NCBI GenBank assembly: GCA_044347025.1
Contig: JBIIYC010000002.1
Span: forward strand, 1 to 38,035
Source of the DNA: Bdellovibrionota bacterium
GTDB taxonomy: Bacteria; Bdellovibrionota_C; UBA2361; OMII01
DNA length: 38,035 nt
Direction of reading: 5' to 3'
Shown: one piece after another, positions 1-14,457 of the stretch
Layout: every line of letters begins with the position of its first letter
Numbering within the stretch: the stretch's first letter is position 1
Position numbers and translations under genes: made by a program
Notes under the pieces: model-generated
What the model was told of the DNA's origin: nothing
The model's input: the letters and a program-made list of their open reading frames with translations, nothing else
Database searches by the model: none

Positions 1-860
1 CGGAGCGCATCATCAGTCAGCGGCTGTTCGCTTTGCATCACTCGGCTCGCCAACTGCTGAATGCTACCCTGTACGATTTCGTTTCGAACAAATGGTCGGT
101 TCCAGCGTGAGGAGTCCTGCTCAAGTGCCATGATTGATGTAAGCACCAGCGCTCGCGTGTAGAACTCAGCAGAAACATCGAAATTCTGACTCTCAAGCAG
201 TTGCTTCGATGTTATTGTCATTTCTGGAGGGGTATAATCAGGCATTTGTATATGCCGAAAGAACTGCGTAGAGAGGCCCTGGCTCTCGGTGAAAAGAGCT
301 TCGATTCCGTCCTGAGATCCCGCCAGCATGATAACAACCCTGCCTCCATTCTCCTGTTCGAGGCGATTAAGAGCTCTACCAAGCTGAACTCGATCGTGCG
401 TTCGTAGGGCTGATATATCATCGATGAACAGCATGCCTCCAGCAGCTTGTTCCAGCGCTTGGCTGATTTTACCCTCTAACTCACCGATAAAATGCTCCTC
501 CAGTTCGCATGAAGAGATCGCAGTAATGATACTGTTTTGCAAATATCCCGCGCCGTAGAGCAACTTTCCAACAATACGTGCTATGGCGGCATTTTCAGAG
601 TCGTTGTCTCCGGTCAGAATAATGTTGCCGGTTTCGTCAGGTGTTCTGCTAAGCTGTTGCGCCACTAGGCCGACATTCACTAACTCGCGGAGCTGCTCCT
701 TCACGTTTCTCAGGCCCACCACGGATTCCAGTTCTCGCATCCCCTCTTGCAGTGCAGCTTCGCGAAGAGATGTGGCACCATGAGATGGTGCTGATGCCTC
801 GGGGCATGTATTGCATACAGGGTTGGTTTCGGTCTCTTTATGGGTTGTTATTGGGTTCAT
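1..860 (-). CDS. AAA+ fold protein, CbxX/SpoVK-like, with degenerate Walker A and B (predicted pseudo-ATPase); 3' end runs off the window
   Basis: Absent from the ORF track because it has no stop in the window. My minus-strand translation from ATG 860..858 gives MNPITTHKETETNPVCNTCPEASAPSHGATSLREAALQEGMRELESVVGLRNVKEQLRELVNVGLVAQQLSRTPDETGNIILTGDNDSENAAIARIVGKLLYGAGYL...GGMLFIDDISALRTHDRVQLGRALNRLEQENGGRVVIMLAGSQDG...PDYTPPEM. It is colinear with the neighbouring ATPase (LVLTGNPGTGKTTVAKLLGDYLYGIGYL / GGVLFIDEAY), but GKT is replaced by ENA and the Walker B reads DD rather than DE. Confidence 0.6.
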   Translation of the reverse strand, partial: MNPITTHKETETNPVCNTCPEASAPSHGATSLREAALQEGMRELESVVGLRNVKEQLRELVNVGLVAQQLSRTPDETGNIILTGDNDSENAAIARIVGKLLYGAGYLQNSIITAISSCELEEHFIGELEGKISQALEQAAGGMLFIDDISALRTHDRVQLGRALNRLEQENGGRVVIMLAGSQDGIEALFTESQGLSTQFFRHIQMPDYTPPEMTITSKQLLESQNFDVSAEFYTRALVLTSIMALEQDSSRWNRPFVRNEIVQGSIQQLASRVMQSEQPLTDDAL

Positions 861-930
861 GGGTTCTCTCTCATTATTATGTTAATAGGGTGTCGATGAT
901 TAAACGCTCTGGTAAGGCTTCGGCCCCCTT

Positions 931-960
931 TGTGCCGTCCCCCTTCGGGGATACGGCACA
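931..960 (-). other. Intercistronic stem-loop between the two AAA+ genes
   Basis: tgtgccgt-ccccc-ttcg-ggg-at-acggcaca forms 8 bp plus 3-4 bp arms with a small internal loop. It lies 10 nt downstream of the stop of the 971..2350 gene. No U-tract follows, so its function (attenuator or mRNA stabiliser) is unknown. Confidence 0.4.
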
Positions 961-970
961 AGGAGGAGAG

Positions 971-2350
971 TTAGTTCACTGTTCCTACCAGGTCAGCCAG
1001 GTACTGCTTACTTGCGGGAGTAAGCTCTGGTTGACCCTCGTCTAACACGCGGTGGTCCGTCATGTTGGCGAAGTACTGACCTACAGTGTCAGCATCCATT
1101 TGGATGACGTCGCCGTTCTCGCGCTTAAGCTCCCATTGGAGCTGATCGGGATCGACATGTGACCAGGGAATTCCGGTCAGCTTGTCAAAGAGTAGATCGT
1201 TTGCATGTACAACCTTCCAGCTATCATCAGTGGATGAAGGGTTAGTCGGCATTATTCGATCGGCCATCGGCCCGAAGCTCTGCTCAACGATCCCTTCCCG
1301 CACGAAACGTGCATTTGCATTCAGCCGGTTTGGGAACATGGTCTTTAATGAGCAGAGAACGTGTGCTTTTGCGAAGAATTCAGGCTCAGCTGTAACTCGG
1401 TTCTGCCCCAAAAATCTTCGTGAAATGGCAACCAGCTCTGCGGCGCTATAGTCGGGAAAGTTAATAGTTCTGGTAAACTTCCCCTTCAAGCCGGGATTCT
1501 TTTCAAGGAACTCCTGCATCTCCTTCTCGTAGCCGGCAGCGATCACGATCATCTCGCCCCGGTCTTGATCTAGTCGATGCGTCATCACGTCGATAACCTT
1601 TTGACCGAAGGAGTTGTCGCCACCGCGGGCGAGGGTATATGCTTCGTCGATGAAGAGAACTCCGCCACGAGCTTGATCGAATGCCTGTGCGGTGTTGACC
1701 TGTGCCTCTCCGACATGGGTACCACAAAGCTTCGCCTCATCCCCCTCAACCATGTGCCCTTTCGCGAGGTACCCAATTCCATACAGGTAATCGCCGAGAA
1801 GTTTAGCTACTGTTGTCTTGCCTGTTCCCGGATTGCCAGTTAGTACGAGGTGGCATGACGGCTTTGTGCCACCTAAAAGCATCTTCATAGCGATCACGTT
1901 CATGAATGTGCGGAGCTCTTGCTTGAACTCTTTCAATCCAATCAGATCGTCCATCTGTCGAGTGAACTCCACCAATGCTTGCTCGCGAGTGAGCCCCGGA
2001 CCAGACATGAGGGGAGATGCTATGCCACCCTGGACGCCTGGTGACGGGTGAGATGTGGTAGAATCGCCTGTCGAATGTAGCGCCATTTTCTGGGGCATCG
2101 CGGGTAAGGCGGGCATCGGCGTCCCCTTGCGGCACGCGTCTATCCACCCATCCATATTTACAACAGCTTGTTTGGTTTTCTCCCGTTGTTCCGGGTCGAG
2201 AGGTGCCTGGAGGCGACATCTCAGGAGTCGCTTTGTGTGTTCAAAGCTGCTCTCCGCCGAGGCATATTGGCCTTTATCGAAGCTCTTCTTGCCCTCTTGG
2301 AAGTGATATCCGATAGTTTTGTCATCTGGAATTGGACTTGCGGTCATCAT
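971..2350 (-). CDS. AAA+ ATPase, CbxX/SpoVK/EccA-like clade, with an N-terminal MIT/TPR-like helical head, a Pro/Gly-rich linker and a ~110-aa C-terminal extension
   Basis: Walker A is GNPGTGKTT and Walker B is GGVLFIDEAY. IVIAAGY, NPGLKGKFTRTINFPDYSAAEL and ANARFVRE are typical of CbxX-type AAA+ proteins. The N-terminus (GYHFQEGKKSFDKGQYASAESSFEHTKRLLRCRL..DPEQREKTKQAVVNMDGWIDACRK) reads as a 3-helix MIT/TPR-like unit. An AGGAG Shine-Dalgarno sits 8 nt upstream of the ATG. Confidence 0.85.
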   Translation of the reverse strand: MMTASPIPDDKTIGYHFQEGKKSFDKGQYASAESSFEHTKRLLRCRLQAPLDPEQREKTKQAVVNMDGWIDACRKGTPMPALPAMPQKMALHSTGDSTTSHPSPGVQGGIASPLMSGPGLTREQALVEFTRQMDDLIGLKEFKQELRTFMNVIAMKMLLGGTKPSCHLVLTGNPGTGKTTVAKLLGDYLYGIGYLAKGHMVEGDEAKLCGTHVGEAQVNTAQAFDQARGGVLFIDEAYTLARGGDNSFGQKVIDVMTHRLDQDRGEMIVIAAGYEKEMQEFLEKNPGLKGKFTRTINFPDYSAAELVAISRRFLGQNRVTAEPEFFAKAHVLCSLKTMFPNRLNANARFVREGIVEQSFGPMADRIMPTNPSSTDDSWKVVHANDLLFDKLTGIPWSHVDPDQLQWELKRENGDVIQMDADTVGQYFANMTDHRVLDEGQPELTPASKQYLADLVGTVN

Positions 2351-2373
2351 ATTCGAATCTCCTGTATAATTAG

Positions 2374-2391
2374 GCCCGAGCGTGCTCGGGC
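2374..2391 (-). other. Intercistronic hairpin between the coiled-coil gene and the AAA+ gene
   Basis: gcccgag-cgtg-ctcgggc forms a 7-bp GC-rich stem with a 4-nt loop in the 53-nt gap between the stop at 2404 and the start at 2350. It may set differential expression of the structural protein versus the ATPase. Confidence 0.4.
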
Positions 2392-2403
2392 TTCTACGTT
2401 GAA

Positions 2404-3189
2404 CTACGATCGTGCTGGGACCCTGTATTGGTCGGACGTATAGTTTAGTAGATCGATCCCATCCATTTGGCTTCTCGCAGTTTCCGCTGCTGTTAAAGCC
2501 TTTTGCTCCGCCTCTTTTTTGCGCTTTTCCTGGTGCTGACGTAACACCTTGTCCATTTCGGGCTTGATGGAGGATCCCAATGGCTGTCCTATAACGTCAT
2601 CAGTTTGCCCTCGTTGTTTGCCCTGAATGCCCTCAAGGATTCCCGTAAAAGTCGAGCGCATTTTCCCCCTATTTTTTGCGCCTTCGGAAATTGTTGATTG
2701 CAGCTGGTCGGGATCGGTCGCTGCGTGTTTAGTCGCGGAAGCGTCCTCTAACTCAGCCACGAGAACAACGGTGTCTTCTATAATCTTATCGCTTTCAACC
2801 TCAGCAACTTTGAGCGTAAGGGTCTCATGTCCTGCACTCAATGCTGCTCCCCGTATCTCTAGCTTCAAGTACTTGTTCTGAAGCGCGACGAGTTGAGCGG
2901 TGTCGCCTTTTTCCCTGGCTTCGATCATTTGGTCCAGAATCGACTCCTTTCTGGCTTCGTTTTTGGCGATTTCGTCCGAATATTTTTGTGCCTTTTGATC
3001 CATGACTACTAGCTTGTCATCTTCAGCATCCGCTCCGGCTCTGGCCAAAGCCTTTTTTTCTGCCTCGTTGTTATCTATTATTCGCTGCCTGAATTCCTTG
3101 CTGAAAGGATTAAAGTTAGCATTGAAGTCATGCCACGCTTGCTGAAATGCTCCGATGTCATTCTTCGGTCCCATACTTAATGAACTCAT
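2404..3189 (-). CDS. Coiled-coil protein, possible ESCRT-III (Snf7) / PspA-IM30 superfamily member
   Basis: 261 aa with a strong GGAGG Shine-Dalgarno 5 nt upstream of the ATG. It is all-helical and charged. The segment MIEAREKGDTAQLVALQNKYLKLEIRGAALSAGHETLTLKVAEVESDKIIEDTVVLVAELEDA resembles the Snf7 core pattern (kkGnk.aAl.aLk.Kk.yekql..l.g....le....). The tail is basic and acidic. The family call is pattern-based only. Confidence 0.75.
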   Translation of the reverse strand: MSSLSMGPKNDIGAFQQAWHDFNANFNPFSKEFRQRIIDNNEAEKKALARAGADAEDDKLVVMDQKAQKYSDEIAKNEARKESILDQMIEAREKGDTAQLVALQNKYLKLEIRGAALSAGHETLTLKVAEVESDKIIEDTVVLVAELEDASATKHAATDPDQLQSTISEGAKNRGKMRSTFTGILEGIQGKQRGQTDDVIGQPLGSSIKPEMDKVLRQHQEKRKKEAEQKALTAAETARSQMDGIDLLNYTSDQYRVPARS

Positions 3190-3695
3190 ACATTCCTCCT
3201 GGTATCGAGTATCTTCCCGGTCTCATTTGATTTGATTTGGACCGGTGTTGGACCAGGATAGTGACATAGGAGAGTTAATAAGGTTTCCGTCGATAGATTC
3301 CGTACAATTTTGGACGTGATATATGAGCGAGAGGCGAAGCTAAGCCGGTGGGTACTAGGAATTGTTTTTACGGTGACAATGTTCGTCTTAATGTGTGTAT
3401 TTCCGGCCACGGGGTGAGTTTCAGAGCGCCTCACTCCCAGAGAAGAGCGAGGATGGTGTTCGCCGTTAGTTGTCCTGCATCAGCGGCAATTTGCCCATTT
3501 TAACGGGGGTGACGCCCGAGGGGCCAATATCTGCCTTTAGCTATCTACGGAATCTATCGCCGGAAGGAAGGGGAGCGGGGGTGGTGTAGCGTGCGCTCCA
3601 TGATAAACACAAATACAACCAAACTTCATACCGCCAAAAACAGCAACGGAAACTCGCTTCCGCAGGGCTCTCCCGGTAACATGGAGGACCTTACG

Positions 3696-4523
3696 ATGCC
3701 GCAGGGCTTTCAACATGGAGAAACTCCTAAAGGGGCTCAAGGGCAGGAAGAGGGAGAGATAGCACAGCCGAAGAGGAGATGGTGGCCTTTCGGTCGAGGA
3801 AAGCAAGACCAGCCAGCCCAGCCAATCCCAGCTTCAGTTGCAGCACAGGAGCCAAGCGTGGCGCCCGTGGAGCCGGCGCCACAGGTTGAGCAGCAGATTC
3901 AGCCGAAGCTGACTGTTGAAGAGATCCGGAAGGGGCTTAAAGACCAGATTGAGATACTTACGCCGGAAGAAACAAGGCTTAAGCAAGAATGCAAGCGGCT
4001 TGAGGAGCAGCAGAATAAGAAATACGAGGAACTAGGTGAGTTGGAGGACAAGAGCGATTGCTCGCTAGAGGAGCTGGAGAAGATAACCCAACTTTCTCTC
4101 GAAATTCATGCGATAGAAATCGAAAAACAACAGGCGGACGAGGAGTTAGCGGATATATCAGTGTTAATTACTGGCGCACAAACCACTCTCCTGCAATTGC
4201 CTAAAGAGCTTTCGGTGGCTGACGAGGCTGCAAAGAAGATTGCCGAATTGGGGCGGGCCACGGATATAATCATTGAGGCGAAGTCTCAAGAAGTTAAGGT
4301 CGCCGGTGCAGACATTGCAGCGGTGAAAGAGCGCCAAGTAAAATGGCAAGCTACCCAGATGCCACAGCCGCAAAAAAGTAGGCCCCATGACCCTGTACGA
4401 GAAGGAATTACTAGCCGCGCCTTGGCAGAAGCGCGGGCAAGGAAGGCGCAAAAAGCGACGAGTAATAAGGCAGGGGACGAGGCTACGTCTGCGGGCGGCA
4501 AGCAATCCGGAGTTGCCCATTAA
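3696..4523 (+). CDS. Coiled-coil protein with a Pro/Gln-rich N-terminus, possible second ESCRT-III/Snf7-like protein (divergently transcribed)
   Basis: The ORF is open from GTG 3591. I prefer ATG 3696 because GGAGG (3683..3687) lies 8 nt upstream. The core is ...LEDKSDCSLEELEKITQLSLEIHAIEIEKQQADEELADISVLITGAQTTLLQLPKELSVADEAAKKIAELGRATDIIIEA, which is Snf7-like in heptad and charge layout. The C-terminus carries a basic amphipathic helix, SRALAEARARKAQK. Confidence 0.7.
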   Translation: MPQGFQHGETPKGAQGQEEGEIAQPKRRWWPFGRGKQDQPAQPIPASVAAQEPSVAPVEPAPQVEQQIQPKLTVEEIRKGLKDQIEILTPEETRLKQECKRLEEQQNKKYEELGELEDKSDCSLEELEKITQLSLEIHAIEIEKQQADEELADISVLITGAQTTLLQLPKELSVADEAAKKIAELGRATDIIIEAKSQEVKVAGADIAAVKERQVKWQATQMPQPQKSRPHDPVREGITSRALAEARARKAQKATSNKAGDEATSAGGKQSGVAH

Positions 4524-4531
4524 ATAACCCG

Positions 4532-4574
4532 GCGTGACGCCTCTGAGGAGGAATTTCTTCCAGAGGCGTTACGC
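4532..4574 (+). terminator. Long hairpin immediately after the stop at 4523 (terminator-like, no clear U-tract)
   Basis: gcgtgacgcctctg (4532..4545) pairs with cagaggcgttacgc (4561..4574) to give 14 bp including one G-U pair. The loop can add 3 further bp. Confidence 0.4.
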
Positions 4575-4799
4575 ATAAGTGAGTAGGACTAGAGTGGTGC
4601 TCCCAGAAACTCTGATTGCCCCTTGAGCGTTCAGAAAACAATTCAGAAGGATCTGATCGAAAAAATAACGATGAGTAGAGCGGCAGCGGCACCATAGTTG
4701 GTAGATATCTCGGATCTGCATCTTACAGCCGATAGGGGTTCAAAACGGTGGCTGTGGCACCCTGCACAGCGAGATTCCGGTGAGCCGAAGTAGTCTAGA

Positions 4800-4875
4800 G
4801 AGTGGCGCCAGGGATGTGTGTTTTCTCATGGCGCCACTCGGAGCCCCGATACGAGCGGGGCGTTAGGTCTAACGC
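4800..4875. other. Cluster of three consecutive GC-rich hairpins in an intergenic region
   Basis: The three hairpins are gagtggcgcc (4800..4809) with ggcgccactc (4830..4839), ccccg-atacgag-cgggg (4844..4860), and gcgtta-ggtc-taacgc (4860..4875). They lie 50-125 nt downstream of the stop of the minus-strand GxxExxY gene. Confidence 0.35.
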
Positions 4876-4923
4876 TGACGCAGATTGTTGGTGACCGCTC
4901 CGGGTGGCTCGTACTTCGCTGAA

Positions 4924-5412
4924 TTAGTGCGCGCTTTGATGTGATTGGTGTTCTCTCTCCCTGAATGTTTTACAAAGAGGACAGCGAGAACAGAGAGGGG
5001 AAGGAAATGGGCGTCTGAGACCGTCTTTGAGCAACTTTGCGTTAAAGTGGATCAGAAGTCCGACGCGGGCGTCGGTGAGTTTCATGTAAGTGATAACTTG
5101 GGCTTGGTGAATTGGTAGAAGTTGTTCCACTGCCTTTAGTTCAACGACGAGGTAATCGTCGATCAGAAAGTCCAAGCGATAACCACAATCCAGTGAGATA
5201 CCTTTGTAATCGATCGGTATTGCCGCCTGATTGATAAAAGGCAGTCCAGCTAGTTTAAGTTCATAGGCGAGGCATTTTTCGTAAGTTGACTCGAGTAATT
5301 CGGGTCCGAGGGTTCGATGGACCCCAATCGTACAACCGATGACCTGTTGGGTTAGAGGGTCTTTTTCCCCCTCTTCGTTCTCGCCGCTCTCTTTGTTAAA
5401 ATACATATACAT
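4924..5412 (-). CDS. GxxExxY family protein (PD-(D/E)XK nuclease-like fold)
   Basis: The sequence QQVIGCTIGVHRTLGPELLESTYEKCLAYELKLAGLPFINQAAIPIDYKGISLDCGYRLDFLIDDYLVVELKAVEQLLPIHQAQVITYMKLTDARVGLLIHFNAKLLKDGLRR matches the family signature almost position for position. There is an unusual ~25-aa Cys/His-rich C-terminal extension. Confidence 0.85.
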   Translation of the reverse strand: MYMYFNKESGENEEGEKDPLTQQVIGCTIGVHRTLGPELLESTYEKCLAYELKLAGLPFINQAAIPIDYKGISLDCGYRLDFLIDDYLVVELKAVEQLLPIHQAQVITYMKLTDARVGLLIHFNAKLLKDGLRRPFPSPLCSRCPLCKTFREREHQSHQSAH

Positions 5413-5520
5413 CTTATCGGCAATCTGCCGTATAAGGTGCTCAAGCCGCGCACCCGGGGCTATAGTAGAGAGAACAAGTGGCTCGTTTTGATGCTCGCTC
5501 GCGCTCGCACAAAATAGCCA

Positions 5521-5812
5521 CGCGATGGTACACAGCCGTCGGCGCGCAGGCGCTTTCCTTCAGTGTAATCAACGGTGAGTGGCATGCCCGCCCTCCCTTT
5601 GTAATGCGTGAGGATATACGAGGGGGATTGTTCCTGTTTGTCGCGTTAACGATTACATTCATCAGCCGCAGGCGCATTTGGTAGGCGTAATCAAGGGAGG
5701 GCTAGCAACCTGTTCCCCATAGCCTTGGCGGAGGGGTATGTTTCTCGCCGTTCGTGACGTTAACGATTACAGCCATCAGCCGCAGGCGTATTTTGTTAGG
5801 CGTAATCAAGGG
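5521..5812. repeat. Three copies of a ~55-nt element at a 114-123-bp period
   Basis: Copy 1 (5644..5697) is cgttaacgattacattcatcagccgcaggcgcatttggtaggcgtaatcaaggg. Copy 2 (5758..5812) is ~90% identical to it. Copy 0 (5521..5575) is degenerate (cgcgatggtacacagccgtcggcgcgcaggcgctttccttcagtgtaatcaacgg). Each copy carries the inverted pair gattac...gtaatc. The sequences between copies are mostly unrelated. Confidence 0.7.
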
Positions 5813-5875
5813 TGGGCGGGGCAAGCAGGCGTTTTCCTACGTCGTCCTGCCCCGCTTCTGTCCAAGCTAATCACA

Positions 5876-8533
5876 CTACCGGGTAAGTACGATCTCAGGA
5901 GAATCCGAGTTTGGGTTGGAGCTTTGCTTCCCTAACTTCCTTTTCCTGGAGGGTGGTGGGGTGGGTTGTTGTGTAACGGCAGACTCTCGCAATTTCCGAT
6001 AAATCGTCGCTGCAAAGCGCTCGCTCCACACTGTTAACGCAGCGGATTCAAATTTTAGATCCGAGTTGATTGCTTGGACGGTCTTGAGAGCGTTCTGCGC
6101 CCAAGCAGATACTTCAGCGAGGATAATTGCTTGTTGCTGAGAGCCAAAGCCTACCTCTAGTTTGCCCAGGTAGGAGTTTGCGTGTAGATGAACCTTTTTC
6201 AGGTCTTCGCTTCGTTCCGCAGCACGCAGAAGCTCAGCATTCTGATCCAGCCGCTTGGCAAGCAGGTTTAGTACCGTCAGTGCGGTTGAAAAGAGAGGCC
6301 CTTTAGCAGCAGCGGATGGGCCAAATTGGGAGGATATCAGGTTACTGAGCTGATCCCATTCTAGCTGATTGGGGCGCTTCTGAATCGTCTGGGCCAGCCG
6401 TACTATCTCGCCGAGGTACCCCTGTAGCTCAGCACCCCATTTGTGGCCGAAGGCCTTCGGCGCCAGCTCCTCCTCCAGCTTTCTGAACGCTTCGCTCTTC
6501 GTTCGCAGGAAGTCGCGGATGTTCTTTGCGATATCATCGGGGGCGAGTTCCCTATGATCTCCACCGCCAAAGTAGGCTAATGCCGCTTTGAAAAGCTCGG
6601 CTGGTGGATTCTCAAGTGGGCGTGTGACCTCGAGGTTCGGAACATACGAGGAGGGGACCTGGAGCTTCGCTTGGCACCGCTCAAGACCGCGTTGTGCCTC
6701 GGAGTGCGAGGGCCACATTGTCAGGGCTTGTTCGAAGTATTGAGCCGCCCTGGCGGTATTAGACAACTCTTCGATTGACGCCAAACCACAAAGCGCCTCG
6801 GGGCGAGTCGGATCGAGTGCCATAGCGGCCTCGAACATGGCGCGAGATTCGACCATTGCTTTTTCTGGCTTAATCCAGCCCTCAATGACGGGTCGAAGAG
6901 TGAGGGTGCCTTGTGTGACAAGGCTGTCATAGGTTGGTCTTGGGATGAGCTCGTCCAGTTTTGAGCTTAAGTTGCTCAACTGGAAGACGTCGCACTCAGC
7001 GTGCGCAGCTTGAAGGATTTGAAGCGCCTCTGGGGTTACCCCGAGCGAAAAGCTGTGTTCAAACCAGTTCTTAACGTTGTCATCATCCACGCCGATGCCC
7101 GTTGCCGTCATGGAGACTGCCTCAAGGCCGATAAGTAACGCGCGCTGTTGGAGCATTGGATCAGTGGCACCCTGATAAGCCTTAACTGCTAATTGGGTTG
7201 CCATATTCCACTGATTATGACCAAGAGCGATGCGAGCTTTTAGCAGCGGGTCCGTAAAAGGCAGGGGAAGTGGATAGGTGGAAGCTATCTCCTGGAGTCT
7301 TTGCAGTCTTGAGCCCTCTTTCGCAGGGGCTTTGACATCTCTTGAAAGCATGGCGATCTCGAACCATAGGTCGCTGCGTAGTCTCTGCCATGCATTCTCC
7401 GGTGTCCATTCCTGTAGTACTTGGTCGGATTTGTCGTCGACCCTAATCTCTACCTCTGAGAGACGACGCAGAAAATTCCCGACAAGCGGGGAATCTACAC
7501 CGAGTTTAATAGCTAGTTCCGCAAGACGAGTGCACTCGCTGACCGAAGATAGACATTTATTCTCCAGCATTCCGCGTAGGGTTAGAAACTCAAGGTCATC
7601 AGCCCCTTGACGACGACAGATCTGGGCAAGGCTACTAAGATCACTTGCAGTTGCGTCCTGACGGTAGAGTAGAGCTTTTACGTAACCAAACGCTTCCGGA
7701 AGATCCCCTGCTTGTAAAGCAGCCTGGCGCAGGCTGATAAGCCCCGCGCGGTCGTGCTGGATGGCAAGAGTCTTCGCTTTTTCATCTGTCTGGGCTGTGC
7801 TTGCGGCAAACGACAGTGCCTCTCTCAGGTTCTTCAGCTCAACGAATGGGTCATGGGATTGGATCTCGTAGATCGTGTTTAGAAGTGCAATCTCCGGAGC
7901 GCTGTTTTGCATAAACGGGGTGCTTTGGAGTGAGCGAGAAAGATCGTCGATAGTTCTCCTTAACTGCTTGCGCGCTACCTCACGAGCTTGATGGCCAGCT
8001 CCGGCGTCTTTGGCTGATTGAAGGCAGTCGTGGAGTGCGTTTAACACAACGATTCGTCCTCTAATGGCAGAGATAAACTCGGAGGGCTTCGCTGTGTTTG
8101 ATGGGGCCAAATTAGGGATTTTCCCGATGATGAGTCCATTGGTGGCGGCATCCACAATTGCGTCAATCTCAGCAGCTATCCTCTGTAAGCCGTTTTCTCG
8201 TTTGACTGAGTTCTCTGTAAGAAATTTCGCAACTTGGGCGGCTGCCGCCTCAGTTTGTTTAATAGTAGCGGCGAGCTGTGAGCGTTTTGCAGCCAGATCG
8301 AGGCCTGATATCTTGTTTGTTTGGGAATCGTGCCGCGTAGCCTCGAGCGAGAGGTTGTAGTTTGTGTCTAACCCAATCCTCAAGTGTACTGAGAGCTCCT
8401 TGGTTAATTGCGAGCCGCCTAATTGCTCAAGAACGTGTAATTGCTCCGCAGTCAGGAGTGCGGAGTATCGCTCGGCGGGTATTGAGACTTTCTTGTCCTG
8501 TATTTCGAGAGCTTTGTTTGTTCTGAAGAACAT
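5876..8533 (-). CDS. Large all-helical orphan protein with TPR-like repeats and a Pro-rich basic C-terminal tail
   Basis: 885 aa with an AAGGA Shine-Dalgarno 8 nt upstream. The start is 18 nt after the stop of the upstream gene, which implies an operon. TPR-like segments include AMFEAAMALDPTRPEALCGLASI and AAQYFEQALTMWPSHSEAQRGLERC. The tail is QQPTPPPSRKRKLGKQSSNPNSD. No signal peptide or TM segment was seen. Confidence 0.8.
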   Translation of the reverse strand: MFFRTNKALEIQDKKVSIPAERYSALLTAEQLHVLEQLGGSQLTKELSVHLRIGLDTNYNLSLEATRHDSQTNKISGLDLAAKRSQLAATIKQTEAAAAQVAKFLTENSVKRENGLQRIAAEIDAIVDAATNGLIIGKIPNLAPSNTAKPSEFISAIRGRIVVLNALHDCLQSAKDAGAGHQAREVARKQLRRTIDDLSRSLQSTPFMQNSAPEIALLNTIYEIQSHDPFVELKNLREALSFAASTAQTDEKAKTLAIQHDRAGLISLRQAALQAGDLPEAFGYVKALLYRQDATASDLSSLAQICRRQGADDLEFLTLRGMLENKCLSSVSECTRLAELAIKLGVDSPLVGNFLRRLSEVEIRVDDKSDQVLQEWTPENAWQRLRSDLWFEIAMLSRDVKAPAKEGSRLQRLQEIASTYPLPLPFTDPLLKARIALGHNQWNMATQLAVKAYQGATDPMLQQRALLIGLEAVSMTATGIGVDDDNVKNWFEHSFSLGVTPEALQILQAAHAECDVFQLSNLSSKLDELIPRPTYDSLVTQGTLTLRPVIEGWIKPEKAMVESRAMFEAAMALDPTRPEALCGLASIEELSNTARAAQYFEQALTMWPSHSEAQRGLERCQAKLQVPSSYVPNLEVTRPLENPPAELFKAALAYFGGGDHRELAPDDIAKNIRDFLRTKSEAFRKLEEELAPKAFGHKWGAELQGYLGEIVRLAQTIQKRPNQLEWDQLSNLISSQFGPSAAAKGPLFSTALTVLNLLAKRLDQNAELLRAAERSEDLKKVHLHANSYLGKLEVGFGSQQQAIILAEVSAWAQNALKTVQAINSDLKFESAALTVWSERFAATIYRKLRESAVTQQPTPPPSRKRKLGKQSSNPNSDSPEIVLTR

Positions 8534-8551
8534 GGCGTAATCCTTTTGGTG

Positions 8552-9712
8552 CTAATCAGTATAAGTGCTCTGTTTCTTTGCGTTCCCATTAACCGCCTCA
8601 TCAAGCATGCGCGCCAGCTTTTCAAGCGCGCTTCTCTCTGCTCGGTACGTTCCGTATAGTGCCGTTTCAATTGCGTCGTAAGTAGGCATCAACTCATCTG
8701 GCACCTGTCTCCGAATCTCATTTCGGTGCGGAGCGTATTCCTTCATTCCTACAAAGAGACCCACAGAGCTAGCAGCGACTACTTTAGCCAGCGTGGCGAT
8801 TCGGTGCCAACGTAGGGGGGAGTTCGGTGTAGTTGGAGCACCGGCATGGGGGTCTTTGTTCGTATTTTGGAGAGCCTGCTTTCGGGTGGTTTCCGCACTG
8901 GCTGAGCGCGCCGTCCAATAGCCCGGTAGGTCAGCCGAGGGGCCTCCTGGGCTTGTTTGCACCTCACGTTTCTCGTCGGTATCGCTTTTTGGTAGGCAGG
9001 TACGCCCTTCCTCAATATGTCCTCCAATAGAATCTAATGCTCGTCCATCTTGGTGGGCTATATCTTTAGAACTCGGCGAAGAAACCAAGCACGTTTTACT
9101 TGGAATTGGCTCTGCTGATTTGCTGACTGTGAGTAATAGGCTGGTATCCTCCTCGAGGATCTCCTCCTTGGGCTGATTGATCGTTACCGATTTACGTTTA
9201 GCCGCTGGCTCTGGTTCACGTTTCTTAGACTCTGCTGACGGCGAAGGGAGCGTTGCAGCGCTGAGGTTAATCGCGGGGGCGGGCGCCATTGTTTGTGCTG
9301 GAGTATGCCCAAGCTGCCTAAGGAGAACGAGGCGTTTATGTGGATTCTGGAGAGCAGAAATAATCTCACGAGCGCCCGCGTTCAATTTGGTGAATAGCCG
9401 TGTATGGAAGTCGGGCGGAAGATCTGGATGATGAGCGCATAGTGCCGGATTCAATCGACTTTGGAGTTGTTGATGGCGGGACGCTATCTCGGAGGACCTC
9501 ATCTGTTCGAGATCGTGTGGTGCTACGTTGAGCATAAATAGTTCGCCGGTCACCGAGTTCAACGAGCTCAAAGCCTGCTTCCCCTTGTCGATAAGTTTCA
9601 CTATATCGGGGTCACTCTTTGAAGATGACACAGAGGAGAGTCTTGCGACTGAACGGGCAGGGTTCTCTCGGGGAGTGTCGGTCTTGTGATTGGGCAATTC
9701 GATAGATGGCAT
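8552..9712 (-). CDS. Orphan protein, largely low-complexity/disordered (Ser/Pro/Lys-rich) with one hydrophobic segment near the C-terminus
   Basis: 386 aa with an AGGAGA Shine-Dalgarno 9 nt upstream of the ATG. The hydrophobic stretch is IATLAKVVAASSVGLFVGM and there is a basic cluster KKREPEPAAKRK. I recognise no family. Confidence 0.65.
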   Translation of the reverse strand: MPSIELPNHKTDTPRENPARSVARLSSVSSSKSDPDIVKLIDKGKQALSSLNSVTGELFMLNVAPHDLEQMRSSEIASRHQQLQSRLNPALCAHHPDLPPDFHTRLFTKLNAGAREIISALQNPHKRLVLLRQLGHTPAQTMAPAPAINLSAATLPSPSAESKKREPEPAAKRKSVTINQPKEEILEEDTSLLLTVSKSAEPIPSKTCLVSSPSSKDIAHQDGRALDSIGGHIEEGRTCLPKSDTDEKREVQTSPGGPSADLPGYWTARSASAETTRKQALQNTNKDPHAGAPTTPNSPLRWHRIATLAKVVAASSVGLFVGMKEYAPHRNEIRRQVPDELMPTYDAIETALYGTYRAERSALEKLARMLDEAVNGNAKKQSTYTD

Positions 9713-9913
9713 ACGGTGCGCTCTCCTAAATCGACATGAATCCTACGTGATAAACTTCTTGGGGCCTTCTGTTCATGAATTCGGTAAAAAACAGAATGTA
9801 CAGGGGTATTTCAGTTGTCGGCGGTGATGAGCGAAGAAAGTAGCTGCGAGGAGACCTGACGAAAGAAACCTTCAGGGTGTCAACGCAAATATCCTGCAGC
9901 TACGAGTTGAGTT

Positions 9914-10195
9914 TTATCTCCTAGGCGGAAGTAAGCGCATGTTTTCATGGCGCTTTTCCCTCCTCTTGGCACTCACCGTCACTAGTAGTAAACCGATCGC
10001 CGCAACTGCCCCCGGTGGACCACCCCAAATGAACATCGCCGCAAGGGCAATGGCCGTCAAAGGAGTGGGCAGTGCGAGGATAACAGCGCTTACGATCGAG
10101 TATGCGAGGCTGATGATCAGCCCGGCCGTGAGGATGCCAACGAGTGAGAGCAAAATGCTGATCACTCCCAGCCATCCGAAGAAGTTTCTTGTCAT
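9914..10195 (-). CDS. Small hydrophobic membrane protein (about 3 TM segments)
   Basis: 93 aa. FFGWLGVISILLSLVGILTAGLIISLAYSIVSAVILALPTPLTAIALAAMFIWGGPPGAVAAIGLLLVTV is followed by a basic tail. No Shine-Dalgarno was seen, and the overlapping plus-strand ORF looks less protein-like. Confidence 0.45.
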   Translation of the reverse strand: MTRNFFGWLGVISILLSLVGILTAGLIISLAYSIVSAVILALPTPLTAIALAAMFIWGGPPGAVAAIGLLLVTVSAKRREKRHENMRLLPPRR

Positions 10196-10534
10196 GATGT
10201 GTAGGTATTGTGTTGTTTGTTTTGTTGAGGCATCCCCACTTTCGTAGGGAAAAAAACGCGTGTAACAGAACCTTTGTCAGATCTCCGTCGCAACGCTGGC
10301 GACGTGGTTAGTCGTCAACGTTGCGGCGGATGCAAGCCATCCATCTACCCAGACCAGATTGAGAAAGAATACACACCGACGAGTAACGCAATAATGCGAT
10401 AGATCGCGGGGGATAACGGGAAGGTACGGGAGTACGAGATTGAGATCCACAATAAACAGCGATCCTGAATCCATCTCCGGAATCGATTCCGGAATCAAGG
10501 CAGTGCAGCGCGCATGATCGAGTTCGTTAGGGCA

Positions 10535-11383
10535 TTACAGCGTGCCATGCCGCGCCATATAGAGTCCCAGGATGCGAACATCGCTGGCGTACCTTTCTGC
10601 CTCTGCGATAGCCTTTGTAAGATCGTTTGAAGCGTGCTCGGGACACTCGAGGTCGATGTGAAAGGCGTATTCAAACGGCTTGCCTGCAACCGGACGAGAT
10701 TCCAGCTTAGTCAGGTTTATGGTGAGGTTTGCAAAGAGCCCCAAGAGTTTGTAGAGGCTTCCCGGTTCGTGTCGCAGAGATACTACCATCGAACACTTTG
10801 TTGGAGCGGCGCATGGCATCGGCTCGGCCGCGATAGCAACGAAACGGGTCGCATTCGTTGCGTGGTTTTGGATCGATTCCTGTACAATCGGAAGAGCGTA
10901 TTCCTCGGATGCTTCTTGGCTTGCGATCGCTGCATTTGCAGGGTCTTTGGATTGAGCTACTTGGAAGGCCGCACCCGCGGTGTCGGAGCATACAACGGCG
11001 GTGATGTGAGGGTGGCTCTCAAGGAAGCGTGAGCACTGCTCCAGCGCCTTTGGATGCGAGAATACCCTGGTGATTCCTTTCAGGGGCCCTGAACACAGAA
11101 GGTGAAGGTGGACCGGGCAATAGTACTCATCAATGACAAAACACCGATACTCTTGGAGGAGATCGTAGTTTTCATGCACCGAGCCGGCGAGTGCATTTTC
11201 AATCGGAACCACCCCTATATCGGCGCGACCTTGGATAATATGCTCAAATATCTCCCGAAAACGGGTGGTTTGCAGGGGGGCGCTCGGCGGGCCGTACAGA
11301 GCCCGAGCGGCCATACTACTAAACGAGCCAGTGATTCCTTGGTAGGCTATCCTCTTTTCCATGAATAGGGGATGATACCGCAT
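10535..11383 (-). CDS. pheA: Prephenate dehydratase (PDT plus ACT domains)
   Basis: Evidence is IAYQGITGSFSSMAA, the TRF motif (NATRFVAI), and the ACT region LTKLESRPVAGKPFEYAFHIDLE. The track ORF extends to 11512 but would overlap kdsB by 120 bp, so ATG 11383 or 11362 is the more likely start. Confidence 0.85.
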   Translation of the reverse strand: MRYHPLFMEKRIAYQGITGSFSSMAARALYGPPSAPLQTTRFREIFEHIIQGRADIGVVPIENALAGSVHENYDLLQEYRCFVIDEYYCPVHLHLLCSGPLKGITRVFSHPKALEQCSRFLESHPHITAVVCSDTAGAAFQVAQSKDPANAAIASQEASEEYALPIVQESIQNHATNATRFVAIAAEPMPCAAPTKCSMVVSLRHEPGSLYKLLGLFANLTINLTKLESRPVAGKPFEYAFHIDLECPEHASNDLTKAIAEAERYASDVRILGLYMARHGTL

Positions 11384-11390
11384 ACATTCT

Positions 11391-12176
11391 ATGAAAACCA
11401 TTGTTGTTATACCGGCCCGGTATGGGTCATCGAGATTTCCCGGTAAGCCGCTGGCGATGGTCGCGGGGCGCAGTCTTTTGGAACGCGTCTGGCGAATCGG
11501 CAAAGCCGTCACCGGTGTTGATGCGGTTTATGTCGCCACCGATGACGTGCGGATTGCAGACCATGTTGCACACTTCGGCGGTGAGGCGATTATGACCGCT
11601 TCGGAGTGTCGGAACGGTTCTGAGCGTGTGTGGGATGCTGTCAATAAGCTCCAGGAGAAGCCGGGGATCGTCATCAATCTGCAGGGTGATGCAGCGTTGA
11701 TGCCTCCTTGGATTATCGGCTCTCTCGTTACAGAGATGCAGCGTGATAGCTCAGTACAGATTGCGACTCCCGCGACGCAGCTTAGTAGAGCGCAGTACGA
11801 AGCGATGCTATCGATCAAATCGTCGGGGGTAGTCTCCGGAACGACGGTGACGTTTTCGAGGGCTCATGATGCACTCTACTTTTCGAAGGGGATTATCCCG
11901 TTTATTAGAGAGTGGTCCCAGGGCGAGGTGAGTCCGGTGTTCCAACATATCGGGGTGTACGCGTACACGTATGAGTCGTTAGGACGCTACATATCCTTGC
12001 CCATGGGGAGGCTTGAAGAGGTGGAGCAGCTTGAGCAGCTCCGTGCTCTTGAGCATGGGATGCCGGTTCGAGTCGTAGAAGTTTCGCTGCAGGGGCGTAC
12101 AATGTGGTCGATAGATAATCCTCAGGATGTAGCTCGGGTTGAGCAGATTATCGCCTCTGAAGGGGAGCTGGTATGA
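11391..12176 (+). CDS. kdsB: 3-deoxy-manno-octulosonate cytidylyltransferase (CMP-Kdo synthetase)
   Basis: The N-terminus MKTIVVIPARYGSSRFPGKPLAMVAGRSLLERVW plus IVINLQGDAALMPP and EQLEQLRALEHG are classical KdsB signatures. Confidence 0.9.
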   Translation: MKTIVVIPARYGSSRFPGKPLAMVAGRSLLERVWRIGKAVTGVDAVYVATDDVRIADHVAHFGGEAIMTASECRNGSERVWDAVNKLQEKPGIVINLQGDAALMPPWIIGSLVTEMQRDSSVQIATPATQLSRAQYEAMLSIKSSGVVSGTTVTFSRAHDALYFSKGIIPFIREWSQGEVSPVFQHIGVYAYTYESLGRYISLPMGRLEEVEQLEQLRALEHGMPVRVVEVSLQGRTMWSIDNPQDVARVEQIIASEGELV

Positions 12177-14347: not shown

Positions 14348-14384
14348 AGAATCGGGGATTGGATGATTGAAGGGAAAAGGTGTG

Positions 14385-14457
<73 letters not shown>

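Follow-up and report, generated by a model that had tools for sequence, protein, structure and literature searches.

The left end of a metagenomic contig assigned to a Bdellovibrionota bacterium (GCA_044347025.1, contig JBIIYC010000002.1), which was analysed over its entire 38,035 bp and is called the window below, carries genes for two helical and two AAA+ proteins that may form a lineage-restricted, membrane-proximal filament-plus-unfoldase module working in the manner of ESCRT-III and Vps4, a reading that we hold tentatively and rate a little short of an even chance. Three of these genes, AAA2 (1..860), AAA1 (971..2350) and CC1 (2404..3189), lie on the minus strand, and CC2 (3600..4523) is transcribed divergently from the plus strand. 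The reading draws on AAA1, in which a head that is MIT-like in its predicted structure precedes a linker and an AAA+ core, on the order of the genes and on CC1, whose predicted structure is suggestive of an ESCRT-III-like protein, its membership in the ESCRT-III superfamily being unproven. Of the filament-plus-unfoldase analogy drawn in the original prediction, made from the sequence alone, the head, the linker, the clade of the ATPase and the gene order have stood, whereas similarity to Snf7, PspA or MIT was not matched in sequence and CC2 gave no signal as a profile. Unexpectedly, the locus also proved to be an island of high variability and recombination, set between flanks that are nearly identical, a feature that the original prediction missed.

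The order of CC2 (divergent), CC1, AAA1 and, in part, AAA2 was found in four diverged haplotypes belonging to at least two species. Beyond the window it occurs in the loci L005, L006/L009 and L007, and the co-occurrence expected in related genomes is seen in every related locus found. L005 holds CC1, AAA1 and a second AAA gene, with the N-terminus of CC2 upstream, and L007, a Bdellovibrionota metagenome-assembled genome from a lake metagenome with an AAA1 that is 70% identical, is the one true relative returned by a scan of genome contigs. A scan of metagenome contigs, dominated by the generic G[VI]LFIDEA pattern, gave only distant SpoVK-like loci (≤46%), and the family was not found in viral contigs. 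At one locus (L090:78-4666) this ATPase clade has other neighbours: P0007, a close double-AAA relative of AAA1 with 777 residues, belongs to a conserved cluster that also contains an FHA-domain protein, a PP2C phosphatase and one more AAA gene. Pfam, NCBIfam and PADLOC, run on every protein of the module, assigned only AAA, TPR and PDDEXK_3, and the PADLOC matches were weak, generic AAA ones (IetA at 3.6e-7, in the ATPase core), with none for the other six proteins.

An AAA+ ATPase with a predicted MIT-like head

AAA1 has 459 residues, the first 75 of which (2126..2350, minus strand) form a predicted three-helix head. A model of residues 1-80, made with AlphaFold2 (AF2) from a five-sequence alignment, reaches a predicted local distance difference test score (pLDDT) of 91.1 and places the helices at residues 10-25, 29-46 and 53-75, in a bundle that can be superposed on MIT structures. 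When it was searched with Foldseek against the whole PDB, the 12 best matches were all MIT domains; the MIT matches include those of yeast and human Vps4, Sulfolobus CdvC bound to CdvB, spartin, katanin p60, NRBF2 and MITD1, with query TM-scores (TMq) of 0.66-0.80 over 64-81 columns and, for the closest, a root-mean-square deviation of 1.1-1.7 Å over 64-69 columns. TPR proteins rank below the MIT domains in this list, and N-domain structures of EccA are not in the top 50 PDB structural matches. The model supports, on structural grounds, a head that is MIT-like and not an EccA-type TPR array; the latter had been named as the outcome that would speak against the idea, and a single three-helix unit is predicted in its place. 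The proposed layout of MIT-like head, linker and AAA core is in this respect borne out.

The linker (residues 76-125, about 50 in number; 1976..2125, minus strand) is rich in Pro, Gly, Ser and Thr, as anticipated, and its alignment columns are poorly conserved. It leads to an ATPase core (residues 128-386; 1193..1969, minus strand) in which both Walker motifs, A and B, are intact and the pore-loop position reads HVG, replaced by YVG in L006. Over residues 124-387 the protein matches the NCBIfam CbbX/SpoVK/EccA models at 7e-60, 7e-54 (the type VII secretion system model, T7SS_EccA) and 8e-47, with scores below the equivalog cut-offs (202 vs 423, 183 vs 467 and 160 vs 459), so that AAA1 is best described as a member of the CbbX/SpoVK/EccA clade and an orthologue of none of the three. 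Its sequence matches in the PDB are CbbX (2.6e-57) and EccA1 (3.4e-55), then p97 (1e-17); the best 60 do not include Vps4. Judged by these matches, the core is of the CbbX/SpoVK/EccA clade and not of the Vps4/katanin/spastin clade, as the original prediction had it.

The CbbX match stops at residue 386, and the remaining 73 residues (387-459; 974..1192, minus strand) make up a C-terminal domain beyond the CbbX fold, which has no sequence relative in Pfam or the PDB and is common to the AAA1 and AAA2 copies, active and inactive, the AAA2 of L007 included. Its pattern reads …GIPWS.ID…LQWEL.RE.G.VI.M.A..VGQYFA.M.DHRVLD.GQPELTPA..YL….

AAA2, cut off at its C-terminus by the contig end so that 286 residues are visible, is a CbbX/SpoVK-type AAA+ protein without an N-terminal head (5e-24 to 5e-23 against the NCBIfam spore_V_K, CbbX and EccA models). 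In the window its Walker A reads GDNDSENAA in place of GNPGTGKTT, its Walker B FIDD in place of FIDE, and GLSTQF stands in place of GLK(G/S)(K/R)F with loss of the Arg-finger motif; since all three motifs are degenerate, this copy is predicted to be a pseudo-ATPase. The dead Walker A appears, however, to be specific to the haplotype, because the AAA2 of L007 (371 residues, with DD in Walker B and the same C-terminal domain) keeps a Walker A, GSTGSGKST, and the second AAA gene of L005 is a full-length, active-looking copy with an MIT-like head. The dead paralogue first described is thus a property of the haplotype of the window and does not extend to these two loci.

The helical proteins and their possible likeness to ESCRT-III

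CC1 is an all-helical protein of 261 residues. An AF2 model built on a multiple sequence alignment (MSA) of four sequences places helices at residues 12-25, 30-94, 97-155, 161-200, 210-240 and 244-254, with a long hairpin of 65 and 59 residues that turns at a tip of sequence EKGD (93-96). This layout, predicted by a model of low confidence, corresponds to that of helices alpha0-alpha5 in PspA, Vipp1 and ESCRT-III. Some 20 of the 50 best Foldseek matches, the first four among them, are chains of the ESCRT-III superfamily, at E-values of 0.19-1.3 and TMq of 0.27-0.39; the Foldseek probabilities are 0.96-0.97 for CHMP2A/CHMP3, 0.94 for the Snf7 core, 0.91 for Asgard ESCRT-IIIB and at most 0.90 for Vipp1 (rank 6), and CHMP1B, CdvB2 and PspA are also listed.

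Profile comparison with hhalign adds a signal of another kind. The sequences of PspA, Vipp1, LiaH, Snf7 and CHMP used as comparators have their Pfam scores as sole validation, matching the Snf7/PspA_IM30 models at 1e-16 to 1e-72. When four-sequence profiles of CC1 and of Snf7/CHMP were aligned, 108 collinear columns (CC1 56-167 on Snf7 19-130) gave a score of 30.8 (P 1.2e-3). The KGD of CC1 falls there on the KGN of Snf7, and this is where the independent AF2 model has its hairpin tip. For comparison, PspA against Snf7, a pair known to be remotely related, reaches 28.2, and reversed controls give 13-19. None of 450 shuffles (150 by column and 300 by block, in blocks of 7, 14 and 28 columns) reached 30.8, their maximum being 27.1, and the highest score among 544 natural open reading frames (ORFs) run as single queries was 24.7. 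Score and register are robust to the MSA method and options, with a range of 29.5-33.4.

CC1 is also the fastest-diverging gene of the locus. Its identity to the orthologues is 15-21%, and against L007 it stands at 21%, compared with 70% for AAA1; short motifs in the tail are kept despite this divergence. The N-terminal segments are moderately amphipathic (hydrophobic moment, muH, ~0.5), a value that is not discriminating for an alpha0 helix, and the hydrophobic-moment test was dropped as evidence of one.

The start of CC2 had been placed at 3696. L007, L006 and L003 all keep the N-terminal peptide MINTNTTKLHTAKN.NGNSLP, and because of this conservation in three other loci translation is taken to begin at the ATG at 3600, which gives an ORF of 307 residues. 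On inspection the protein shows, after the conserved peptide, a short hydrophobic W/F-FG-x-GK motif and a Pro/Gln spacer, then a body of two putative helices of ~45 residues, a break between them containing Gly, Pro and Asp, and two shorter putative helices. Its basic tail contains a conserved DP-h-x-E-x-x-TSR-x-LA helix that is only partly MIM1-like (MIM being the MIT-interacting motif).

Several results weigh against placing these proteins with ESCRT-III and Vps4. Pfam Snf7 (PF03357) and PspA_IM30 (PF04012) gave no match at E ≤ 10 for the four CC1 orthologues, nor for any of the seven CC proteins. A PDB profile search with CC1 returned no ESCRT-III, PspA or Vipp1 chain at E ≤ 10, and an exhaustive HMMER search with the CC1 profile through 1.84 billion cluster representatives recovered only the four clusters of its own family; word-indexed homologue searches with CC1, as single sequence and as profile, likewise found its own family only. 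The CC1 model has a mean pLDDT of 60.7, with 80-89 at residues 61-110, its Foldseek search of the PDB gave nothing at E ≤ 0.001, and SMC coiled coils, designed bundles, YscO and CT398 are among the matches. The hhalign probability of the CC1-Snf7 alignment is only 15-33%; in leave-one-out runs the score ranges over 18-34, with several runs at 18-25, and it leans on yeast Snf7; against PspA, CC1 is at background level. For CC2 the hhalign profile scores of 14.8 against Snf7 and 19.6 against PspA are at control level (the CC2 of L006, as a single sequence, reaches 24.7, the same as an unrelated integrase), and the Snf7/PspA likeness first claimed for this protein has found no support at profile level. 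For CC1 the helix layout, the Foldseek ranks and an hhalign score above the nulls are suggestive of the claim, which found no match in the Pfam and PDB sequence searches.

The head of AAA1 is subject to similar reservations. With the heads of two haplotypes no Pfam family, MIT (PF04212) and TPR included, matched at E ≤ 10, so that the profile check proposed at the outset came out negative, and a PDB profile search with the head gave no MIT chain at E ≤ 10. Its Foldseek E-values of 0.12-0.4 are modest, unavoidably so because the query has only 75 residues, and three-helix bundles, like long hairpins, are simple folds that recur by convergence. Genomic context adds further points on this side: hidden Markov models of PspA and Snf7 matched none of 3,559 ORFs in ~1 Mb, chiefly from 80 metagenome loci with related SpoVK-type AAA+ proteins, two close double-AAA relatives of AAA1 adjoin FHA/PP2C or housekeeping genes and not PspA, and a hypervariable mosaic locus would be unusual for a housekeeping membrane-repair system. 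An argument from association, with PspA or Snf7 genes sought beside related AAA+ genes, was rejected on the first two of these results.

A hypervariable island and its alternative readings

The island spans 972..10212 of the window. Its flanks, common to at least three haplotypes, are 92-99% identical in nucleotides between contigs, and the syntenic genes inside are 15-55% identical in amino acids. At the left edge, L009:1-1479 is 99.1% identical to window 10212-11690, which holds the PDT gene (protein 99.7%), and the identity ends ~15 nucleotides before the ATG of a 93-aa ORF, near 10212. Inside the island, amino-acid identity to L009 is 30-55% for a 386-aa protein, 27% for an 885-aa protein, 22% for CC2, ~15% for CC1 and 37-43% for AAA1.

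The right edge is marked by the 3' tract of AAA1 (972..1175, minus strand), which is conserved in nucleotides across haplotypes: it is 96% identical to the 3' end of AAA1 in L006 and 92% to that of AAA2 in L005, the rest of these genes being at ~50%, and in L004, L005 and L006 the similarity extends past the tract, at 92-94%, over a terminator hairpin that these loci have in common and >350 nucleotides of flank. By its sequence pattern, 972-1175 is a recombination or gene-conversion tract, or a shared right flank. A functional invariance of the C-terminal domain of AAA1 was considered from the nucleotide identity and rejected, L007 being only ordinarily conserved there. The same AAA C-terminal tract of ~200 nucleotides occurs as a repeat in AAA1 and in AAA2 and hardly varies from one haplotype to another, and contigs break at it (the ends of the window, L009 and P0002). 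In L004, AAA1 is joined straight to the downstream flank and AAA2 is missing; because contigs break exactly at this repeat, its lack may be an assembly artefact of repeat collapse and was not relied on. A further breakpoint lies inside CC2, where L003 shares with the window CC1 (97%) and the first ~98 codons of CC2 (3600..3893, 95.6% in nucleotides), and beyond window 3893 has an L007-like coiled-coil body instead.

The variable block is larger than the four genes first described. A 93-aa hydrophobic protein with ~3 transmembrane (TM) segments by hydropathy is its first gene (9914..10195, minus strand), followed by the 386-aa orphan protein (8552..9712, minus strand), which has one TM helix by hydropathy (305-323), a Ser/Pro-rich region and a conserved C-terminal stretch of 80 residues, and is syntenic and co-diverging. 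The 885-aa helical TPR protein (5876..8533, minus strand; TPR units at 562-625), likewise an orphan, has weak Pfam TPR matches, a match to a designed CTPR at 3.8e-6 and an orthologue of 857 residues in L009, and is probably part of the module, being syntenic and co-diverging as well. Given this pattern, with three more co-varying genes of which two encode membrane proteins, the functional unit is probably larger than four genes and membrane-linked, the co-varying block extending to ~10212. A PDDEXK_3/GxxExxY gene of the nuclease superfamily (4924..5412, minus strand; Pfam 4.8e-40, NCBIfam 4.5e-40) is an accessory insertion present only in the haplotype of the window and not at the same position in the syntenic L009.

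Within the four-gene part, the ORF coordinates of AAA2, AAA1 and CC1 and the end of CC2 at 4523 are confirmed. Ratios of nonsynonymous to synonymous polymorphism (pN/pS) within the haplotype are 0.14-0.25 for CC1 and 0.11 for AAA1, the mark of purifying selection, and these low values indicate that both are functional genes. The divergent intergenic, presumably regulatory, region between CC1 and CC2 (3190..3599) is conserved at 78% in nucleotides against L007 and 66% against L005, the adjacent CC1 having no nucleotide similarity. The small intercistronic hairpins noticed at first sight are indeed present, as an inverted repeat between AAA1 and AAA2 (925..966; 19-nucleotide arms, 79% complementary, 4 nucleotides apart) and as a hairpin with perfect 8-nucleotide arms between CC1 and AAA1 (2374..2391), and a third inverted repeat lies directly 3' of the CC2 stop codon (4532..4574; 14-nucleotide arms, 93% complementary). 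Scans for promoter and terminator consensus sequences stayed at background level, and Rfam and tRNA scans gave no match in the locus. The sole RNA-family match in the window is a tRNA-Phe(GAA) gene at 14384..14457 (minus strand), 3' of a PBP1-type gene.

An island of this pattern is typical of diversifying or frequency-dependent selection, and the locus can be read instead as a strain-variable conflict or interaction island, concerned with phage defence, with kin or prey recognition or with another frequency-dependent interaction. The ATPase would then be an EccA/SpoVK-like chaperone, the helical proteins would be its clients or specificity factors (adaptors, sensors or effectors) and not membrane-remodelling filaments, and the likeness to ESCRT and MIT would be convergent. 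We regard this main rival as doubtful; the following observations speak for it. The left flank shared with L009 at 99.1% gives way to 15-55% amino-acid identity from the first gene of the block, yet the right flank is again 92-94% identical among L004, L005 and L006; strains with a common CC1 differ in the coiled-coil body of CC2, which is exchanged at the breakpoint; the divergence of CC1 is far more rapid than that of AAA1; and the PDDEXK_3 insertion is haplotype-specific and a TPR protein belongs to the block. There is also a precedent in EccA, which carries a helical-repeat head on a CbbX-type AAA and binds the tails of helical substrates. However, PADLOC recognised nothing beyond the weak generic AAA matches, nuclease, protease or toxin effector domains are absent apart from the accessory PDDEXK_3, the family does not occur in the viral contigs, the best structural matches of the head are MIT domains and not TPR arrays or EccA, and hypervariability is itself compatible with an ESCRT-III-like mechanism. 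The two readings are compatible and do not exclude each other. A genuine bacterial ESCRT-III/Vps4-type machine is in our estimation rather unlikely. In it, an ESCRT-III-fold polymer of CC1, possibly with CC2, would be bound through an MIT-type head and taken apart by an AAA+ unfoldase on a CbbX/EccA-clade motor; the MIT-plus-AAA solution would have arisen, or been transferred, independently of Vps4, and the hypervariable setting would imply that a membrane-remodelling machine is itself fought over in an arms race in which phage, prey or competitors take part.

It is improbable that CC1 and CC2 make up a scaffold of the intermediate-filament, coiled-coil-rich protein (CCRP) or crescentin type, unrelated to ESCRT-III, whose turnover or assembly is controlled by a dedicated AAA+ chaperone. 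Both proteins do have long charged helical segments of heptad-like composition, Pfam finds only coiled-coil noise in them (Spectrin, TMF), and SMC and spectrin-type coiled coils appear in the Foldseek list of CC1. Yet CC1 is predicted to be a hairpin with short helices and not a single long rod, the CC proteins are short (216-307 residues), the collinear CC1-Snf7 profile signal lies above the nulls, and the MIT-like head of the partner ATPase would be left unexplained. A secretion-chaperone system, like EccA of the T7SS or the chaperones of type III secretion, in which the AAA+ protein readies CC1 and CC2 for export, is very improbable: the EccA1 and T7SS_EccA matches of the AAA1 core (3.4e-55 and 7e-54), helical substrates with conserved termini and weak, non-significant matches to SctI, CdsZ, YscO and SycD are set against the absence of EccC, EccB, EccD and Sct genes from the 38-kb window, the absence of a YxxxD/E export motif, a head that is a 75-aa three-helix unit with the EccA1 N-domain outside its top 50, and a host in a diderm phylum.

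A possible mechanism and its relation to known systems

For the filament-plus-unfoldase reading, we infer polymerisation, membrane binding, tail recognition and disassembly as the parts of the mechanism. CC1, and perhaps CC2, would be an ESCRT-III-like helical-hairpin protein that self-assembles at the membrane, where the linked 3-TM, 1-TM and TPR proteins may aid the assembly of CC1. AAA1 would act as a hexameric translocase of the CbbX/EccA clade. Its flexibly tethered MIT-like head would bind the helical proteins by conserved tail motifs, of which the candidates, only partly MIM1-like, are h-N-x-T-[SA]-x-Q-h at the C-terminus of CC1 and the DP-h-x-E-x-x-TSR-x-LA helix in the tail of CC2; by threading and extracting subunits AAA1 would remodel or recycle the polymer. 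The head-less AAA2, probably impaired in hydrolysis, could be a regulatory subunit that co-assembles with AAA1, or it could be decaying.

The question on which the locus bears is how bacterial polymers of the PspA/Vipp1 type are disassembled. Should the reading be true, an operon of an ESCRT-III-like subunit and an MIT-headed AAA+ protein would be directly testable in a bacterium, and a tail-docking head and a hexameric unfoldase could evidently be built on a non-Vps4 motor. The mosaic of deep alleles offers a natural experiment on the co-evolution of the ATPase head with the tails of its clients.

Among known systems, EccA and CbbX are the closest sequence relatives of the AAA1 core (E ~1e-55). 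Both engage the C-terminal tails of their clients, to which the tail docking proposed for AAA1 may be likened, and EccA too has an N-terminal helical-repeat domain. The head of EccA is, however, a multi-repeat TPR array of ~280 residues, whereas that of AAA1 is predicted to be a single MIT-like bundle of 75; T7SS genes and a Rubisco context are absent from the window, and AAA1 scores far below the equivalog cut-offs. A different comparison is offered by the computationally predicted bacterial genes for PspA or divergent Snf7 that stand beside an inactive-plus-active classical AAA protein (PMC11237479); bacterial MIT-plus-Vps4-like ATPases without Snf7 have been reported as well (PMC11237479). 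These dyads resemble the window, where the hairpin is a predicted one, in having a bacterial helical-hairpin protein next to a pair of classical AAA units, one of them inactive, in the further coiled-coil and membrane proteins nearby and in the ATP-dependent sub-membrane remodelling role proposed for them. They differ in that their AAA units form one polypeptide with the inactive module N-terminal, whereas in the window each unit is encoded by a gene of its own, that of the inactive unit lying downstream, and in that the active AAA of the window has an MIT-like head. Unlike PspA and Vipp1, CC1 has no detectable PspA_IM30 similarity and stays at background against PspA in hhalign, and the PspB, PspC, LiaI, Toastrack and Band-7 partners of PspA systems are absent from the locus.

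Published accounts restrict ESCRT systems complete with both components to archaea and eukaryotes (PMC10936438; PMC7619361), and recent reviews describe a Vps4-like ATPase regulating ESCRT-III polymers as apparently absent in bacteria (PMC7619361). The bacterial host of the window is therefore one difference from ESCRT; others are a locus that is hypervariable and without ESCRT-I, ESCRT-II or CdvA genes, the absence of Pfam Snf7 or MIT matches, tails that fit neither the MIM1 nor the MIM2 consensus, an AAA core of the CbbX/EccA/SpoVK clade that is not Vps4/Cdc48-derived, and the extra 73-aa C-terminal domain in place of the beta-domain and C-helix of Vps4. The likenesses lie in the architecture. 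A predicted MIT-like head, a flexible linker and a classical AAA domain (PF00004) succeed one another as they do in Vps4 and CdvC, katanin and spastin; the gene for the predicted helical-hairpin subunit lies directly upstream of that for the ATPase, as it does, immediately 5', in most archaeal systems (PMC10936438); there is more than one helical subunit gene; and the layout of CC1 in its low-confidence model, with an N-terminal helix, a long hairpin, three shorter helices and a tail, agrees with ESCRT-III, as do its top structural matches. If the filament-plus-unfoldase reading holds, what is new here is an AAA protein of another clade that bears an MIT-like head, with a pseudo-ATPase encoded by a separate gene, together with an orphan, very fast-evolving ESCRT-III-like subunit in a hypervariable setting.

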